A stretch of 64,000 nucleotides of DNA, from assembly GCA_964616855.1 (NCBI GenBank), contig CAZTUJ010000004.1, positions 3,610 through 67,609 of the forward strand, written 5' to 3'. Under the pieces are notes generated by a model. The model saw only the letters and a program-made list of their open reading frames with translations, was not told the origin of the DNA and searched no databases. Position 1 is the first letter of the stretch. Every line of letters begins with the position of its first letter. The DNA comes from an uncultured Gammaproteobacteria bacterium (GTDB lineage Bacteria; Patescibacteriota; Patescibacteriia; Patescibacteriales; UBA12465). Below are positions 3,608 through 64,000 of the stretch, piece by piece. Position numbers and translations under genes: made by a program.

Positions 3608-3696
3608 AAAAACACTGGAATTTTCAAATAATTTCATTTAATCGCGTGTTTAAAACTAATAATCCGCTGCGTAGGAGGGGCGGATTGTTTAAATTT

Positions 3697-4098
3697 ATGT
3701 TTAGCAAGGACAACAAACTAGAAAAATTTAAAGAAGCCGAAACTATTATCGGCGCCTCTATTAAAGTAAAGGGGAACTTCAACGGCCAGGGCGATATTGT
3801 AATTGAAGGTTTTCTTGAAGGCTCTTTAAAAACAGAGTCTAATGTCTTCATCGGCGAAAAAGCCCGAGTTAACGCTAATGTTGAAGCTAGTGAAGCTTTA
3901 ATTAACGGAGAAATCAGCGGTAATATTAAAATCAAGAAATATCTAGCCATCGGAAAAACGGCAAAAATCATGGGCGACGTTCAATGCGGAGAAATCTCTA
4001 TTGAAAGAGGCGCCTCCATCACTGGGCAAATTCTTGTTTCCGCCGAAAGCTTGAAATTATCAGAAAATAAAAAAAATAGACCTGAGGAACAGGCCTAA
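3697..4098 (+). CDS. bactofilin family cytoskeletal protein
   Basis: Repetitive beta-helix pattern IKVKGNFNGQGDIVIEGFLEGSLKTESNVFIGEKARVNANVEA.ALINGEISGNI. I prefer the ATG at 3697 (MFSKDNK...) because MFSK matches the conserved bactofilin N-terminal membrane-targeting motif. The ORF track starts at GTG 3646. Confidence 0.85.
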   Translation: MFSKDNKLEKFKEAETIIGASIKVKGNFNGQGDIVIEGFLEGSLKTESNVFIGEKARVNANVEASEALINGEISGNIKIKKYLAIGKTAKIMGDVQCGEISIERGASITGQILVSAESLKLSENKKNRPEEQA

Positions 4099-14178: not shown

Positions 14179-14207
14179 TTGACAGGCTTGTTTTTATCTT
14201 GTATTAT
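14179..14207 (+). promoter_or_regulatory. promoter TTGACA-17-TATTAT of the tRNA-Arg/ORF/tRNA-His unit
   Basis: TTGACA 14179-14184, TATTAT 14202-14207, about 20 nt before the tRNA 5' end. Confidence 0.6.
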
Positions 14208-14226
14208 CAGATTATTGTGCCAGTTT

Positions 14227-14298
14227 GCGCCCATAGTTCAACGGATAGAACACCAGCCTTCTAAGCTGGATACGTAGGTTCGATTCCTACTGGGCGTA
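14227..14298 (+). tRNA. tRNA-Arg (anticodon TCT)
   Basis: GCGCCCATAGTTCAACGGATAGAACACCAGCCTTCTAAGCTGG...GTAGGTTCGATTCCTACTGGGCGTA. Clean cloverleaf. Confidence 0.9.
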
Positions 14299-14328
14299 CG
14301 AATTTAATTATTTAATATCATTAATTAT

Positions 14329-14508
14329 ATGGAAAATAAGAAGAAAGCGGCTGTCTCCGCTTTAAAAAAGACGATTGCCAAGCCGAAGGCAGTAAAAAAG
14401 CCGGCTGCGGCCACGAAAAAGACCCGTGCAGAAATTGAGGAAATGTTTGCTTTTAGCTTCGGTTGTGATTGCAGCTCCTGTTCCCATCACTGCGGCGATA
14501 AGAAGTAG
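14329..14508 (+). CDS. 59-aa Lys-rich protein with C-terminal CxCxxCxxxC cluster (unknown function)
   Basis: Just under the ORF-track cutoff. Own translation MENKKKAAVSALKKTIAKPKAVKKPAAATKKTRAEIEEMFAFSFGCDCSSCSHHCGDKK. Lies between two tRNAs of one transcription unit. Confidence 0.5.
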   Translation: MENKKKAAVSALKKTIAKPKAVKKPAAATKKTRAEIEEMFAFSFGCDCSSCSHHCGDKK

Positions 14509-14532
14509 GCTTAATTTATTTTAAGATAAGGA

Positions 14533-14607
14533 TGGTGCCCATGGTGTAGTGGTAACACAGCAGGTTGTGGTCCTGTTATTTCGGGTCCGATTCCCGATGG
14601 GCACCCC
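14533..14607 (+). tRNA. tRNA-His (anticodon GTG) with encoded G-1 and CCA
   Basis: GGTGCCCATGGTGTAGTGGTAACACAGCAGGTTGTGGTCCTG...GGGTCCGATTCCCGATGGGCACCCCA. The extra 5' G pairs with C73, the His identity feature. Confidence 0.9.
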
Positions 14608-14614
14608 ATTTTGA

Positions 14615-14641
14615 AAAGACGAGTTTAAAAGCTCGTTTTTT
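14615..14641 (+). terminator. rho-independent terminator after tRNA-His
   Basis: AAGACGAG-tttaaaag-CTCGTTTTTTT. Confidence 0.75.
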
Positions 14642-14756
14642 CTGTTATATAAGGTAAGAAATGAAGTTTGCCAAAATAAATTTTGTCTTATTTAAAATTA
14701 ATATTCATGCTATTATTTTAATTATATTAATTAAATATTATTTTATTAACCAAAAT

Positions 14757-15062
14757 ATGAATAATTGGAATATTCCCAATTGGCTTGAAGAAGAAATTCA
14801 TAAAAGAGATACTCATTGTATCTATTGTGGGGTTAAATTTGATAAAGACGTTAAAAATAATCAAAAAACTATCGAACATATTATAAATGATGCAAAAATT
14901 ATAAATAGAGAAAATATAGCATTATGTTGTCGCTCTTGTAATGCCAGTAAAGGGTCAAAAAGTTTGTTTCATTGGTTGCTTTCAGATTATTGTAAAACAA
15001 AAAATATTATATCAAAGAATATTGCGCCTATTGCAAGAAAAGCATTAAAAAATGAGTCGTAA
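14757..15062 (+). CDS. HNH endonuclease
   Basis: HCIYCGVKFD...TIEHIIND...NIALCCRSCNASKG (HNH with CxxC pairs). The ORF track starts at 14661, but the first 32 codons are low-complexity AT-rich sequence, so the start is uncertain. Confidence 0.8.
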   Translation: MNNWNIPNWLEEEIHKRDTHCIYCGVKFDKDVKNNQKTIEHIINDAKIINRENIALCCRSCNASKGSKSLFHWLLSDYCKTKNIISKNIAPIARKALKNES

Positions 15063-15172
15063 AATTTAAAAGTTTTCCAAAAAATTACCTCTATTTTTTC
15101 AATATCAGTATAGTCTATAGCTTTTTCTAGAGAAAGAGTATAATAAAAATATAAATAATAAAGCATAAAAAT

Positions 15173-15532
15173 ATGAACAGGGCAATATACAAAAAATTTT
15201 TAGCATTAGGTCTTTTAATTTGTGTTTTGTTTTTTCTGGCGGTTTTACTTAGCCCAGATTTTAACACAAAGAAAGGCGTCTCACTTATTGTTATGGATAT
15301 GAGTAAAGAAGAATTAGTTAAAGCATATGAGAAAGATAATGCTTTTTGCTTAATTGACGGCGATTGTGTCGTTCAGGAAGACTGTTATTGTTGTACCGGT
15401 GATATGGCGGTAAATAAGTATAATTATAAGAATGTTGGTTGTGATAAAAATAGAGCAATCTGTGAAGCTATTTGTCCTCCTCAAAAATTATCATGTGTGG
15501 GCAATAGGTGTGAGCTCATTACTAATTTTTAG
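15173..15532 (+). CDS. Cys-rich membrane-anchored/secreted small protein (hypothetical)
   Basis: 119 aa. N-terminal TM/signal (FLALGLLICVLFFLAVLL), then 12 Cys in about 65 residues (CLIDGDCVVQEDCYCCTGD...CEAICPPQKLSCVGNRC). Confidence 0.55.
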   Translation: MNRAIYKKFLALGLLICVLFFLAVLLSPDFNTKKGVSLIVMDMSKEELVKAYEKDNAFCLIDGDCVVQEDCYCCTGDMAVNKYNYKNVGCDKNRAICEAICPPQKLSCVGNRCELITNF

Positions 15533-15610
15533 ATAAATTATAGTTCTAGATCAATTTACTAAATATTCCATCAAAAAAGTTTTCCAAGTTTTGCACTTAG
15601 CTACCCATAG

Positions 15611-15640
15611 AAATAACCCCTTAGGGGCTATTTTTGTTTT
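15611..15640. terminator. bidirectional terminator between convergent genes
   Basis: ATAACCCC-tta-GGGGCTATTTTTGTTTTT. Confidence 0.7.
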
Positions 15641-15698
15641 TAAGAGAGGAATCTAAACGGATAATACTTTTAAGATATAAAGTATTGTATTGTGCAAA

Positions 15699-16589
15699 TT
15701 AATCAAAAACGCCGGTACTCAAATATTTATCACCCCCATCTGGGGCCATAACTACAATGTTTCCGGTAGTTATTTTACGAGCAACTTGTATGGCCACATA
15801 TATATTTGCCCCGGAACTCATTCCTAGAAATAATCCCTCACGTCTAGTTAATTTTTTAAGCATAGCAAAGGCATTTTTGTCCGACACCATTACTTTCTTA
15901 TCTATTATATTAACGTCGAATATTTTAGGAACGATTGCTTCGCTCATATTTTTTAAACCTTGAATCTTGTGGTTTATGTATGGCTCAACGGCAATTTTTA
16001 TTACATCTGGTCTTTGTTTTTTTAACCTCTGCCCCACGCCCGTGAATGTCCCCGAGGTACCCAGGCCGGCGACAAAGTGGGTGATCTCTGGCAAGTCTCG
16101 TAAGATTTCGTCGGCTGTCTCTTCGTAATGAACTTTTGGATTATTTAGATTATCGTATTGATTTAACATAATAAATTTTTTAGGATTTTGTTTTATGAGC
16201 TTCTGTGTCAAACGTATTGATCCATCAATTCCTTCTTTTTTATCTGATAGGATTATTTTAGCCCCATAAGCAGTGAGAATTTTTTTTCTCTCCATGCTTA
16301 CACTTTCCGGTAAAACTAAAATTACTTTATAACCTTTAACTGCTGCCACCATAGCGATTCCAATTCCAGTATTTCCAGAGGTTGGTTCAATGATAGCCAT
16401 GTTTTTATTTAATTGACCGCTAATTTCCGCCCTTTTGATCATTCTGTAGGCAATCCTATCTTTTATTGATCCGCCGGGATTTGCCTTCTCAAGCTTTATA
16501 TAAATATTTACACCAGGTTTAACAAAAAGCTTATTTATTTTTACCATCGGTGTATTACCAATCGTTTCTAGAATATTATTATATTTCAT
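15699..16589 (-). CDS. cysK: cysteine synthase (O-acetyl/O-phosphoserine sulfhydrylase, CysK/CysM family)
   Basis: PLP-lysine motif NPGGSIKDR, asparagine loop EPTSGNTGIG, GLGTSGTFTG. The ATG at 16589 (MKYNNILETIGNTPMV) fits the family N-terminus. The track start at 16703 would read through a terminator hairpin. Confidence 0.85.
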   Translation of the reverse strand: MKYNNILETIGNTPMVKINKLFVKPGVNIYIKLEKANPGGSIKDRIAYRMIKRAEISGQLNKNMAIIEPTSGNTGIGIAMVAAVKGYKVILVLPESVSMERKKILTAYGAKIILSDKKEGIDGSIRLTQKLIKQNPKKFIMLNQYDNLNNPKVHYEETADEILRDLPEITHFVAGLGTSGTFTGVGQRLKKQRPDVIKIAVEPYINHKIQGLKNMSEAIVPKIFDVNIIDKKVMVSDKNAFAMLKKLTRREGLFLGMSSGANIYVAIQVARKITTGNIVVMAPDGGDKYLSTGVFD

Positions 16590-16608
16590 ATTTTTAATGT
16601 AAATAAAT

Positions 16609-16630
16609 AAAAAACCCCGGTTTCCCGAGG
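16609..16630 (-). terminator. intrinsic terminator inside the cysK 5' leader (attenuator)
   Basis: Complement: CCTCGG-GAAA-CCGGGG followed by TTTTTTATTTATTT, ending about 20 nt before the cysK ATG. No upstream co-directional gene for it to terminate. Confidence 0.65.
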
Positions 16631-16657
16631 TGTCCGCCAAGTAATATCTAAAAAATA

Positions 16658-16726
16658 TTAACAACAAGCAGCCCTCGAGAATTCGAAGTGACAGCTGGTG
16701 CAATTTGTGTAGGATGTTCTATTCAT
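16658..16726 (-). CDS. 22-codon Cys-rich leader peptide (candidate attenuation uORF)
   Basis: Own translation MNRTSYTNCTSCHFEFSRAACC*. Four Cys codons, two of them tandem just before the stop. The ATG lies 7 nt after the -10 hexamer. Confidence 0.5.
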   Translation of the reverse strand: MNRTSYTNCTSCHFEFSRAACC

Positions 16727-16869: not shown

Positions 16870-18141
16870 ATGGGACACATTACCTCAAAAAATTATTTAA
16901 AGCTCCAGAAGCGGTTGGATATGAATGCTCAGGGTGCGCCCGCCTCAGAGTCGCTTTATAAAATTTTAGAAATTTTATTCTCCGCTGAAGAAGCGGAAAA
17001 AGTCTCTCTTTTGCCAGTGATGCCATTTGCGGTGAGTGAAGCCGCGGGCAGATGGAAGCTATCGGAGGCAGATACAAATAAAATTCTTTATGAATTAGCA
17101 GACAAAGGGCTTTTATTGGACATGAATAATAACGGTGTACAGACTTATGTTTTAGCGCCCACGATGGCCGGTTTTTTTGAGTTTGCTTTAATGAGGACGG
17201 ATGGTCTTTTTGACCGCAAGATTTTATCAGAGTTATTTTATAACTATATCAACGAAGAAGATGATTTTGTAGAAAAAGTTTTGATGCAAAAAACGCCAAT
17301 TGCCCGCACGCTGGTGCATGAAAACACCATTCAAAGTAAAGATCAATCCGAGGTTCTTGATTATGAACGAGCCACTCATATTATTAATTCCGCTAGTTGC
17401 ATTACGGTCGGAACTTGCTATTGTCGTCATAAAATGGAGCACTTAGGTAAGGCTTGCCACGCCCCACAAGATGTTTGCTTAACTTTTAATACGGCGGCTG
17501 AAAGTTTATCTAAACACAAGATAGCTAAAGAAATTAGCAAAGAAGAGGCCTTAGCTGTTTTAGATAAATGTGTTGATTATGGTTTAGTTCAGATTGGCGA
17601 TAACGTCCAAAACCAAGTTAATTGGATTTGTAATTGTTGTGGTTGTTGTTGTGAGGCTATCCAAGCTTATAAAAAAATTGGTTATAGACGAAAGATAAAT
17701 AGTAATTTTTTTGCACTTGTAAATAGTGAAAAATGCGTTGCCTGTGGAGCCTGTGTTTCTAAATGTCCGGTCGAAGCTATTAAAACGGTTAATAATAAAG
17801 CGGTAGTTGATAAAGATATTTGTATTGGTTGCGGTGTTTGTAAGCGTCAATGTGGCCCCAAAGCAATAAGTATTGAGCGTCGAGAAAAATTAGTCGAAGT
17901 GCCTTTAGACAGTTTTGAGCGTTGTGTTATCACAGCCATTGAGAAAAATAAATTACAAAATTATATTTTTGACAACTATAGTCTCTGGACGAACGAGCTG
18001 TTGCGTAATTTAGTGGGGGTATTATTTAAATTAAGTCCAGCTAAATTTTTAATTGCTAACCGACAATTAAAGTCTCAGTTCCTTAAGGCGCTGAGAAAGT
18101 CAAAGACCAGTAAAATATATAGTAGTTTAAATAAAGCATAA
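16870..18141 (+). CDS. multi-cluster Fe-S protein (2x[4Fe-4S] ferredoxin domain plus extra Cys motifs, N-terminal helical/wHTH-like region)
   Basis: 423 aa. CVACGACVSKCP and CIGCGVCKRQCG ferredoxin motifs, additional CITVGTCYCRHKMEHLGKAC and WICNCCGCCCE. No CxxxCxxC radical-SAM motif. TGgTATAAT extended -10 at 16840-16848. Confidence 0.7.
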   Translation: MGHITSKNYLKLQKRLDMNAQGAPASESLYKILEILFSAEEAEKVSLLPVMPFAVSEAAGRWKLSEADTNKILYELADKGLLLDMNNNGVQTYVLAPTMAGFFEFALMRTDGLFDRKILSELFYNYINEEDDFVEKVLMQKTPIARTLVHENTIQSKDQSEVLDYERATHIINSASCITVGTCYCRHKMEHLGKACHAPQDVCLTFNTAAESLSKHKIAKEISKEEALAVLDKCVDYGLVQIGDNVQNQVNWICNCCGCCCEAIQAYKKIGYRRKINSNFFALVNSEKCVACGACVSKCPVEAIKTVNNKAVVDKDICIGCGVCKRQCGPKAISIERREKLVEVPLDSFERCVITAIEKNKLQNYIFDNYSLWTNELLRNLVGVLFKLSPAKFLIANRQLKSQFLKALRKSKTSKIYSSLNKA

Positions 18142-44594: not shown

Positions 44595-45899
44595 ATGCAA
44601 GTAACTAAAAAAGATTTAGAGAAATCACAAGTCGAGTTAGCGATTATTTTAGAATTTGATGAATTTAAGCCATATATTGAAAAGGGAGCACAACATGTTT
44701 CTGAGCATGTAAAAATTGAAGGCTTTCGTCCCGGCAAGGTTCCTTACGAAATTCTCAAACAGAAAGTGGGCGAAATTAGTATTTTAGAAGAAGCCGCTCA
44801 TATTGCCATCCGCAAAACTATTGATGATGTGTTTGCTAAAGAGTTGGCTGGCCGTCAGCCCGTTGGTCAACCCAGCGTGGAAATTACTAAGCTTGCTCCC
44901 GAAAACCCCTTGGAATATAAAGTGGTTATTTCCTTATTACCGACCGTAGCTTTAGGAAAGTATAAGGATTTAAAAATTGAGCGGGAAAAACCGGAAGTCA
45001 ACGATGAAGATCTTAATAAGACTATTAAAGAAATTTTAGAAATGCGCGCTAAGGAAAGTTTAAGTGCCGAAGCCGCTAAATTAGGCGATAAATTAATTTT
45101 AAATGTCAGTCTTAGTTTAGATAAGGTGCCGGTCGAAGGTGGTCAGGCGCAAGATGTGACCGTTATTCTGGGTAAGGAATATATGGTTCCCGGTTTTGAT
45201 GATAAGGTTTTAGGGATTAAGCAAGGAGAAAAAAGAGAATTTAAATTGTTATATCCCGAAACCCATCACCAGGCTAATTTAGCGGGCAAGATGGTTGAAT
45301 TTGCAGTTACCGCCACTTCTGTCTATCAGCGAGAACTACCGGCTTTAGATGATGATTTAGCTAAGTTGATGCACTTTAAAGATTTAGACGATCTCAAAGA
45401 TGCCATTAAAAAAAATATTTTAGCCGACCGCGAACGTCAAGCAGATATTAAGTCAGAGTTAAAAATGTTAGAGGCGATTGCCGCTGATGCTAAGTTTGGC
45501 GATATCCCGGAATCTCTATTAGAAAGCGAGTCTGAGAGCATGCTTGCCGAATTACAGCGCAATATCACTAATCAGGGCGGCAATTTTGATGACTATTTAA
45601 AGCACTTAAAGAAAACGCCGGCAGAATTACGCTTAGAATTATTACCTAATGCCATTAAGCGGATTAAGACCGCCTTAATTATTCGTGAAGTTGGTATTAT
45701 TGAAAAGGTGGAGGTAAAAAAAGCCGATTTAGAGGATAAGTTGGAAGGTTTAAAGAAAATGTACGGACAGGAGGCGGAAGCGGCTAAGCAGTTAAATAGC
45801 CCGGAATACCGTCGCCATTTAGAAAATATGATGTTCAACGATCAGGTCGTTGCTCAGTTAAAATCTTGGAATTATGCCGATTCTGGCAAACAATCGTAG
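44595..45899 (+). CDS. tig: trigger factor
   Basis: 434 aa. N-terminal ribosome-binding GFRPGKVP motif and a central FKBP-like domain. Confidence 0.92.
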   Translation: MQVTKKDLEKSQVELAIILEFDEFKPYIEKGAQHVSEHVKIEGFRPGKVPYEILKQKVGEISILEEAAHIAIRKTIDDVFAKELAGRQPVGQPSVEITKLAPENPLEYKVVISLLPTVALGKYKDLKIEREKPEVNDEDLNKTIKEILEMRAKESLSAEAAKLGDKLILNVSLSLDKVPVEGGQAQDVTVILGKEYMVPGFDDKVLGIKQGEKREFKLLYPETHHQANLAGKMVEFAVTATSVYQRELPALDDDLAKLMHFKDLDDLKDAIKKNILADRERQADIKSELKMLEAIAADAKFGDIPESLLESESESMLAELQRNITNQGGNFDDYLKHLKKTPAELRLELLPNAIKRIKTALIIREVGIIEKVEVKKADLEDKLEGLKKMYGQEAEAAKQLNSPEYRRHLENMMFNDQVVAQLKSWNYADSGKQS

Positions 45900-46341
45900 A
45901 GCGAGTTTTGATTACGACTTATTAGAAAACTATGAAGCCGGCCTGATTTTGTTAGGCCATGAAGCCAAATCGGCTAAGGCGGGACATATTAATCTAAGTG
46001 GCGCCTATGTCAGTATGCGAGCGGGTCAGAATGGTCCTGAGCTGTGGCTAGTCAACGCCCATATTTCCCCTTATCGTTTTGCCGGTAAGCTCCCAGACTA
46101 TGATCCCGTACGCGAACGCAAGCTATTATTAAAGAAGAATGAGATTGCGCACCTTTCTGGGAAGACCCAGGAAAAAGGCTTGACATTGGTTCCAGTCAAA
46201 ATGTATACTAAACGCAGTTTCGTAAAATTAGAATTTGCTTTAGGCCGAGGAAAGAAGAAATATGATAAGCGTGAAAGCATTAAGAAGCGCGAGGTCGAAA
46301 GGCAAATACGAACTTTAACAAAGAGACAGAATGTAAGATAA
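45874..46341 (+). CDS. smpB: SsrA-binding protein SmpB
   Basis: 155 aa. NRRASFDYDLLENYEAGLILLGHEAKS. The tmRNA gene starts 2 nt after the stop. Confidence 0.95.
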   Translation: MPILANNRRASFDYDLLENYEAGLILLGHEAKSAKAGHINLSGAYVSMRAGQNGPELWLVNAHISPYRFAGKLPDYDPVRERKLLLKKNEIAHLSGKTQEKGLTLVPVKMYTKRSFVKLEFALGRGKKKYDKRESIKKREVERQIRTLTKRQNVR

Positions 46342-46342
46342 T

Positions 46343-46729
46343 GGGGATGCCGGGCATCGATAATAACGACTGCTCTTAGATATTCAAAACGGGTTTTGGT
46401 TAAACCGTAAAAATAATCTAAAAACATACATGCCAAAACTACTGGCAGAGCGTTTACTTGGAAAGTTCCGAGTTTCGCTCCCGTTATGGCTTAATTAAAA
46501 AATAGCCATAGCCATCGGACCGGGGAGGCTTCAGCTCCGTCATCCGGTGTCATAATTTGAAGCTTTGAAAATAATCACCCCCTCTGGTTATTTTCGAGAC
46601 AATGAGGGGTGACCGTCGTTGCTTTTGTTCGGTTTTTTATGACGACGGTGACACCAATTAAATCGGACTAATTTTGTAAAGTTATCTAGGGGTACTTATT
46701 AGACATGGGTTCAACTCCCATCATCTCCA
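46343..46729 (+). ncRNA. ssrA: tmRNA (ssrA)
   Basis: 5' GGGGATGCCGGGCATCGA pairs with 3' ...GGGTTCAACTCCCATCATCTCCA (tRNA-Ala-like, G3:U). The internal tag frame from GCC at 46432 runs to TAA at 46492-46494 and reads AKTTGRAFTWKVPSFAPVMA. The resume codon is not certain. Confidence 0.85.
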
Positions 46730-46739
46730 CATAAGATTG

Positions 46740-62215: not shown

Positions 62216-64000
<1,785 letters not shown>

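Follow-up and report, generated by a model that had tools for sequence, protein, structure and literature searches.

The DNA analysed here is a stretch of 64,000 bp (hereafter the window) from contig CAZTUJ010000004.1 of assembly GCA_964616855.1, positions 3,610 to 67,609, and the element of interest is an open reading frame (ORF) of 59 codons lying between a gene for tRNA-Arg(TCT) and a gene for tRNA-His(GTG). On the evidence of its sequence and that of its relatives, this ORF is very probably a real, translated microprotein gene that forms part of the tRNA unit. Its product belongs to a family that, judged by sequence comparison, is lineage-specific and resembles nothing known, and whose carriers are a Falkowbacteria-related group of Patescibacteria (Parcubacteria). 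The reading that we favour, and consider likely, is that a tRNA operon gives rise to a four-cysteine (Cys4) microprotein that probably binds metal. The coordinates of the features are collected in Table 1.

The coding nature of the ORF is evident from its homologues. A word-seeded search of 5.8 billion proteins yielded six clusters of homologues, and a search with an alignment as the query yielded 37 clusters (90% identity) with members of 36 to 65 residues, which derive from metagenomes, are labelled "Patescibacteria group bacterium" or "Parcubacteria group bacterium", and carry the product name "hypothetical protein". An exhaustive hidden Markov model (HMM) search of 1.84 billion representatives gave eight matches at E <= 1e-3, all of them small proteins of the same family except P0013, a repetitive and artefact-like protein of 342 residues; no larger protein containing the module of a helix and a cysteine cluster (see below) was found in this search, and no interrupted copy of the ORF was present among the homologues found. 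The codon alignment comprises 12 distinct nucleotide sequences. Every indel in it is a multiple of three, Arg is retained through the codons AGA, CGT and CGC and Ser through AGC, AGT and TCC, and variable columns are concentrated at the third codon position (27, 24 and 51 of 62 at positions 1, 2 and 3, and 10, 11 and 26 of 28 in the C-terminal half). Pairwise rates of synonymous substitution (dS) are saturated between clades; in the pairs with unsaturated dS, the Nei-Gojobori ratio of non-synonymous to synonymous rates (dN/dS) ranges from 0.03 to 0.12, with a value of about 0.05 across the C-terminal half. The three best unsaturated pairs show 15-20 synonymous against 2-8 non-synonymous changes, and each has an excess of synonymous changes over the neutral expectation: window and L011 (14.7 synonymous and 2.3 non-synonymous, binomial P = 2e-9), L004 and L016 (P = 3e-10), and L001 and L012 (P = 1e-5). 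The ORF is under strong purifying selection.

A first-pass annotation of this DNA, made from the letters alone, had called the ORF protein-coding and had proposed conservation and dN/dS as checks. The translation that it gave is exactly the one found here, and the 37 clusters of homologues, the indels in threes and the dN/dS values bear out the call, codon-level constraint being present and the frame being kept in relatives. The promoter, tRNA-Arg(TCT), the ORF, tRNA-His(GTG) and the terminator that it listed are likewise all present, with coordinates that are exact or differ by 1-2 nt. Its remark that the ORF is easily missed does not always hold, as the annotations of NCBI and JGI already carry a "hypothetical protein". 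The opposite reading, in which the ORF arose by chance in a non-coding tRNA spacer or the spacer is a structured RNA, could draw on the shortness of the ORF, the lack of a Shine-Dalgarno (SD) sequence and the lack of a family match, but chance does not account for the codon-position pattern, the indels in threes and a dN/dS well below 1, nor for a frame that is retained in the 37 clusters and also in the distant loci L026 and L028. A structured spacer RNA is ruled out by the folding of the RNA between the two tRNAs, which is no better than that of shuffled sequences (z = +0.54), with the start region unpaired in the centroid fold, and Rfam recognises the two tRNAs and nothing else at the locus. 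Both the chance ORF and the structured RNA are excluded, and the probability that we would still assign to them is negligible.

From the sequences, the conserved functional unit of the microprotein is the helix together with the Cys4 cluster and not the "histone-like" tail. The family signature reads K-T-R/K-x-E-I/L-E-x-M/L-F-x-F-x-F-G-C-D-C-x-x-C-x-x-x-C-G. Over the 37 clusters D47, C48, C51 and C55 never vary, and C46 is found in 36, with His in its place in the remaining one. Conservation reaches at least 90% for K31, T32, E35, E37 and F40 and about 90% for His53, while R, K, S, N or D can stand in place of His54. CDCSSCSHHC is the sole match to CxCxxCxxxC in all six reading frames of the window, the gene being single-copy there. 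The N-terminal tail varies between members in length and in sequence, again by indels in threes. It had been described as histone-H1-like and rich in Lys, Ala and Pro; this is not the core of the family, since the tail is variable and, in the orthologue L028 from a Candidatus Falkowbacteria genome, both tails are acidic (whole protein: isoelectric point, pI, 4.1; 19 D+E against 3 K+R), with helix and Cys cluster kept. AlphaFold models reached a mean predicted local distance difference test (pLDDT) score of 57.8 with six sequences and 63.9 with 37 sequences, and the helix at residues 33-41/44 (pLDDT about 73-80) is their only fairly confident element. The structure prediction that the first-pass annotation had suggested was thus carried out, with a fairly confident helix at 33-44 and low-to-moderate values elsewhere.

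These properties bear on the idea of a basic nucleic-acid- or ribosome-binding zinc protein, whose tail would bind DNA, rRNA or tRNA and whose Cys cluster would form a structural zinc knuckle. On this view the gene would lie among tRNA genes because its product works in translation, for instance as a small lineage-specific protein of the ribosome or one associated with tRNA. The window protein has a pI of 9.6, rising to 10.7 for residues 1-31, most members of the family have a Lys-rich N-terminus, the conserved strong promoter is common to the gene and the two tRNAs, and several ribosomal proteins are missing in bacteria of the Candidate Phyla Radiation (CPR) (PMC9297842). Single members also match the Hc2/HC2 profile, but weakly (E = 0.016-0.055) and far under the cutoffs, and no ribosomal-protein or histone-like family was matched above threshold: the models of bL31, bL32, bL33, bL36 and uS14 gave nothing above noise, and there was a single L14e match at E = 0.068. 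The basic tail is, moreover, the least conserved part of the protein. Because the N-terminus of L028 is acidic and the tail is variable, nucleic-acid binding by a zinc protein would be at best the property of one clade, and as an account of the family we regard it as unlikely.

The second line of evidence is the genetic arrangement. Twenty-eight related loci were fetched, and the order tRNA-Arg(TCT)-ORF-tRNA-His(GTG) is present in 22 of the 22 that reach far enough; four contigs end after tRNA-Arg and the ORF, before tRNA-His. No counter-example was found among the fetched loci that carry the ORF, and conservation of the arrangement, another of the checks proposed beforehand, is borne out in that promoter, tRNA-Arg, ORF and tRNA-His keep their order in every locus long enough. 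The spacers measure 12-36 nt between tRNA-Arg and the ORF, where the sequence is poorly conserved, and 13-32 nt between the ORF and tRNA-His. An exact TTGACA-N17-TATTAT lies 5' of tRNA-Arg in all loci from L001 to L026, and its counterpart in L028 is TTGACT-17-TAGAAT; a hairpin with a T-run is found 3' of tRNA-His in most relatives. Three more distant loci were obtained via a search with the neighbouring SpoU methylase. In two of them, L026 (SpoU 70% identical; ORF product MISEKKSTKKVAPKTAAKKTREQIEEMFSFDFSCDCGHCANKCGEEK) and L028 (SpoU 54% identical; ORF product MNENKNEVEEELTEEEIAKLDELFGFGGGCDCSHCGHDCHGEEEEEVENKE), the tRNA-ORF-tRNA order and the Cys cluster are kept, and the L028 ORF aligns with the family in hhalign with a probability of 97.3% (E = 1.6e-11).

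The conserved neighbours comprise a penicillin-binding protein, a GalT-like protein, a SpoU/TrmH methylase and the two tRNAs. The three upstream protein genes are partly rearranged in some clades, and the genes downstream of the block differ in every clade (an HNH protein in the window, a serine recombinase in L004, transposases in L018). The tRNA-ORF-tRNA block is more stable than its surroundings, and its recurrence is more than chance. In L026 no terminator is present behind tRNA-His and a small ORF comes directly next (3681-3857), which starts 6 nt past tRNA-His and encodes a hydrophobic product of 56 residues; mixing of tRNA and mRNA may be common in these genomes.

At the level of motifs, the locus has the layout of a mixed tRNA-mRNA operon, with all genes on the same strand, a single upstream promoter and nothing between the genes. 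The promoter shares the top score within a 3-kb consensus scan, and the scan showed no further promoter-like or terminator-like site on the + strand between it and the hairpin at 14613-14642. An internal promoter for the ORF was considered and rejected: the scan showed none, and with the 12-nt spacer of L018 a dedicated promoter would need to sit inside the tRNA-Arg gene, the sequence of which is almost invariant among relatives. Since no promoter or terminator is dedicated to the ORF, which lies 12-36 nt and 13-32 nt from the tRNAs, co-transcription with them is most likely. We therefore propose that one transcript, started from TTGACA-17-TATTAT, would contain tRNA-Arg, the ORF and tRNA-His and would end past tRNA-His. 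In the window tRNA-Arg has no encoded CCA, GAATTT coming next, and tRNA-His does encode CCA, as some relatives do not; the G at 14534 is likely the encoded G at position -1 of tRNA-His, because "ATG" precedes GTGCC in 12 of the 12 loci compared. Ribosomes could translate the precursor itself, or a piece of about 235 nt that would be freed by a cut of RNase Z type at the 3' end of the CCA-less tRNA-Arg and an RNase P cut at the 5' end of tRNA-His; given these gene features, it is plausible that the two nucleases release the mRNA.

Initiation would be independent of an SD sequence, on an AT-rich and unstructured leader, as would be the case for nearly all genes of this genome. The spacer between tRNA-Arg and the ORF contains no SD, hairpin or promoter match and is unpaired in the centroid fold. 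The absence of an obvious SD, noted in the first-pass annotation, is real for the ORF and yet nothing special, as 48 of the 55 window ORFs that reach 100 residues and do not overlap have no SD-like 4-mer within 20 nt upstream, and start contexts in the window, that of the microprotein ORF included, are typically AT-rich. A subgroup of the Parcubacteria was reported to be without the anti-SD motif in 16S rRNA (PMC9297842), and the scarcity of SD sequences in this genome fits with such a loss in part of the Parcubacteria.

The position of the ORF just 5' of tRNA-His also invites a different explanation, namely that it encodes a leader peptide, functionless in itself, whose translation acts in cis by tuning the processing or transcription of tRNA-His, through ribosome transit over His codons and, in most relatives, AGA, which are read by the flanking tRNAs. 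The ORF contains 1-3 His codons, and the conserved Arg codon is AGA in nine of the 12 distinct sequences; the clade of the window, however, has CGT or CGC at the conserved Arg, and His54 is replaced in several members, so that an attenuator leader would have at most three His codons, which are not invariant. Neither a hairpin with a T-run nor any other terminator or antiterminator structure was found in the spacer before tRNA-His of the window or in its counterparts of 13-32 nt in relatives. Conservation peaks at the Cys, Asp and hydrophobic helix positions and not at the Arg and His codons. Because of this distribution, together with the low dN/dS of the C-terminal half, we see the product as a functional protein and not as a leader, an explanation that we hold to be extremely improbable.

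Protein genes within tRNA operons have precedents. In E. coli tufB sits behind four tRNA genes (thrU-tyrU-glyT-thrT-tufB), and the tyrT-tpr operon gives rise to Tpr, a basic, "protamine-like" product of 29 residues. For the secG-leuU operon of E. coli, separation of mRNA and tRNA depends on RNase P (PMC7049720). The locus described here likewise combines a protein cistron and tRNA genes under a common promoter, and the processing that we propose for it is the same in kind as in these E. coli operons, where tRNA-processing nucleases separate the RNAs; Tpr resembles the window protein in being very small, basic and the product of a tRNA operon. It differs from the E. coli cases in that the cistron has tRNAs on both sides with short spacers (12-36 nt), that its Cys4 product is unrelated and without sequence similarity to SecG, EF-Tu or Tpr, and that the linkage persists across deep divergence. 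The geometry is that of the tRNA punctuation of mitochondria, in which cleavage of flanking tRNAs by RNase P and RNase Z excises the mRNAs, as here too an mRNA without promoter or terminator of its own is directly bounded by tRNAs, whose processing would set both of its ends. In contrast to mitochondria, the setting is a bacterial chromosome, an ordinary promoter and an intrinsic terminator enclose only three genes with short AT-rich spacers, and the processing is a proposed one. The arrangement is a variant of a known operon type, and the Cys4 microprotein family appears to be undescribed.

A stronger version of this comparison can be formulated, in which the locus would represent true bacterial tRNA punctuation, the mRNA being only a by-product of tRNA maturation with ends set by RNase Z and RNase P, and the product a Cys4 factor of the translation or tRNA machinery of these reduced genomes, for instance a lineage-specific, metal-dependent one associated with the ribosome, with tRNA or with an RNase. 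Expression as a by-product, combined with a role in translation, would account for the lasting position of the gene between the same two tRNAs, around which all other synteny has decayed. We mention it as a rather doubtful extension.

To return to the reading that we favour, a metal ion or cluster (Zn, Fe-S or Cu) would be bound by the four thiolates, the Asp and usually one His, all within ten residues; judged from their conservation, these residues most likely serve as metal ligands, although, taken by itself, metal binding is to us about as likely as not. The amphipathic helix (E-I-E-x-M/L-F-x-F-x-F) may serve in dimerisation or docking, the charged tails, which are basic in the window and acidic in Falkowbacteria, would be variable accessories, and placement in a tRNA operon would couple synthesis of the microprotein to the translation apparatus. 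Bacterial metallothioneins such as SmtA and BmtA carry the signature C-x-C-x2-C-x-C, C-x-C-x2-C is the As(III) site of ArsR, and C-x-C occurs in Cu(I) motifs. The family shares with them its very small size and the dense Cys spacing (C-x-C-x2-C-x-[H]-x-C), and, like the metallothioneins, it keeps only the ligands and a few neighbours while the flanking charge varies. It differs from the metallothioneins in having only four Cys and a helix before the cluster and in matching no model, its metal binding being a prediction. These resemblances are leads and not tests.

Family searches gave no assignment. The window protein has no match in Pfam and NCBIfam, the 37 members gave nothing above noise and no consistently matched family, and the metallothionein models of both collections were not matched at E up to 10 by the window protein or by the 37 members. 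Sequence searches of the PDB, with the profile and with the C-terminal 30 residues, returned only an insignificant match to USPL1 (E about 0.6-1), and Foldseek found no match in the PDB for the predicted model, whose fold offers no hint of function. A phage or mobile origin was considered and dropped, the family not being found in the viral contigs of IMG/VR. Full-text literature searches gave no description of this cysteine spacing or family, and those on tRNA-embedded bacterial small ORFs and on cysteine-rich small proteins of Patescibacteria likewise turned up no account of the family.

The cysteine tail had been read beforehand as metal-binding or modifiable. That it matters stands, as it is the most conserved part of the protein and a cysteine-dependent function is reasonable; the notion of a modified-peptide precursor lacks a linked maturase. 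According to this notion the helix would be a leader recognised by a maturase and the Cys-rich C-terminus the core, as in thioether- or ranthipeptide-like products, and the order of helix and Cys-rich C-terminus would suit it. TIGR04333 (Clo7bot, peptides matured by radical SAM enzymes, which are also short with a Cys-rich C-terminal stretch) is the only family model that points this way and matches the Cys region in two of the 37 members with 13-17 bits, but the best score (17.3 bits) is below the curated cutoff of 31, and the window protein is not matched. Unlike in the Clo7bot systems, neither an adjacent maturase nor tandem copies are present, and the context is that of a tRNA operon. The conserved neighbourhood holds no radical SAM/SPASM, YcaO, lanthipeptide or protease/transporter gene, and no radical SAM/SPASM maturase was found near the window ORF or in the called genes of at least 20 related loci. 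The stretch that would be the core is just as well conserved as the one that would be the leader, which is not so in most such precursors, the downstream genes are clade-specific, and the gene is single-copy in the window. We judge a modified-peptide precursor very unlikely. Two nearby genes were examined as maturases and rejected: the ORF at 16870-18141 (423 residues) has only a 2x[4Fe-4S] ferredoxin domain and is not syntenic in relatives, and the one at 15699-16703 is a cysteine synthase that is not next to the ORF in relatives. As an observation on the window, a cysteine synthase of CysK/CysM type (on the minus strand) and a ferredoxin-domain protein lie within 2.5 kb of the microprotein gene.

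Several points weigh against this reading of a metal-binding product made from a tRNA operon. Sequence patterns are the only basis for proposing co-transcription, processing and translation, and metal binding is proposed from the conserved residues and the likeness of the motif; the searches described above gave no significant hit to a metal-binding family or to a solved structure. The histidines are not invariant, variants such as CHLSC, CPYHC and CANKC being present, the pLDDT is modest over the cysteine region (about 58-71), and the cysteines could instead form disulfides or be modified post-translationally. All sequences are metagenome assemblies. The third of the distant loci, L027 (SpoU 53% identical), is the sole informative outgroup locus for whether relatives without the ORF keep the two tRNAs adjacent; its SpoU homologue stands in a different context from which the tRNA pair is missing, and this limits the claim on distribution to the sampled clade.

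Table 1. Features of the tRNA-Arg/microprotein/tRNA-His unit (window coordinates).
Feature	Coordinates	Strand	Basis or remarks
Sigma-70-type promoter, TTGACA-17 nt-TATTAT	14179..14207	+	5' of tRNA-Arg; consensus scan 11/12
tRNA-Arg(TCT)	14227..14299	+	ARAGORN; Rfam RF00005, 73.4 bits
Spacer tRNA-Arg/ORF, 29 nt, AT-rich	14300..14328	+	Prospective 5' untranslated region of the microprotein mRNA
Microprotein gene, 59 codons and stop, MENKKKAAVSALKKTIAKPKAVKKPAAATKKTRAEIEEMFAFSFGCDCSSCSHHCGDKK	14329..14508	+	ORF list; homologues; dN/dS
Microprotein, peptide AEIEEMFAFSFGCDCSSCSHHCGDK			
Residues 1-31, variable Lys-rich tail, pI 10.7, predicted disordered	14329..14421	+	pLDDT 51-56
Residues 32-45, amphipathic helix T-R-x-E-I-E-E-M-F-x-F-x-F-G	14422..14463	+	(Near-)invariant in alignments A1-A3
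Residues 46-55, cluster C-D-C-S-S-C-S-H-H-C; in the family C-D-C-x-x-C-x-x-x-C	14464..14493	+	
Spacer between stop codon and G-1 of tRNA-His, 25 nt, AT-rich	14509..14533	+	
tRNA-His(GTG) with probable encoded G-1 at 14534	14534..14608	+	ARAGORN 14535-14608; Rfam 58.1 bits
Intrinsic-terminator-like hairpin and T-run	14613..14642	+	13-pair stem, then TTTTTTC; end of unit

Further observations were made in and around the unit. Inside the ORF, a hairpin (AAAGCGG-N6-CCGCTTT) spans 14344-14363 (codons 6-12), forms in the minimum free energy and centroid folds, and has a terminator-like score on the minus strand. The synonymous sites of its stem are unchanged in six distinct sequences from two subclades, while third positions of the loop vary, and it is missing from clades without the AVSAL insertion. 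At the other end of the unit, the region 14609-14660, comprising the terminator and the following TTCTGTTATATAAG, is almost identical to that of L004, the microprotein of which is about 60% identical, and L001, a closer relative than L004, carries a different terminator; this pattern hints at recombination at the 14609-14660 junction. The GC content drops to 0.24-0.28 right behind the terminator of tRNA-His (14600-15700), where an ORF with an HNH domain (14661-15062) and an ORF of 119 residues with a hydrophobic N-terminus, 12 Cys and no family match (15173-15532) are located. Because every relative has different genes on the 3' side of tRNA-His (among them the serine recombinase of L004 and the transposases, of rve/DDE type, of L018), this site looks like an integration hotspot.

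Elsewhere in the window, a tmRNA gene (46343-46730) is followed 9 nt on by tRNA-Leu(TAA) and then by tRNA-Gly(GCC), the cluster extending to 46954; an ORF of 155 residues (45874-46341) ends just ahead of the tmRNA, which makes this a further tightly packed cluster of mixed RNA genes. From 62216 a 23S rRNA gene extends past the end of the window (62216-64000). Within the window, the sequence upstream of this gene contains neither a 16S rRNA gene nor a spacer tRNA, protein ORFs being present up to 61754, and the context of 62216 suggests that the rRNA genes are unlinked.

Small proteins are under-annotated, and the Patescibacteria combine very small genomes with many genes of unassigned function. 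Against this background the microprotein is a clean case, with an invariant four-cysteine site, strong purifying selection and an unusual, fixed address in a tRNA operon. Read from the sequence, this address would imply high expression coupled to the translation apparatus, and the ends of the mRNA may be set by the tRNA-processing enzymes. The locus also lends itself as a natural test, in bacteria, of mRNA maturation by tRNA punctuation and of SD-free translation. As a protein of 6 kDa it is easily synthesised and offers a handle on the metal or redox chemistry of these organisms. Should it prove to be a simple metal buffer, the finding would be a modest one; if instead its target is the translation machinery, the microprotein would add a new component to the ribosome or tRNA biology of CPR bacteria.

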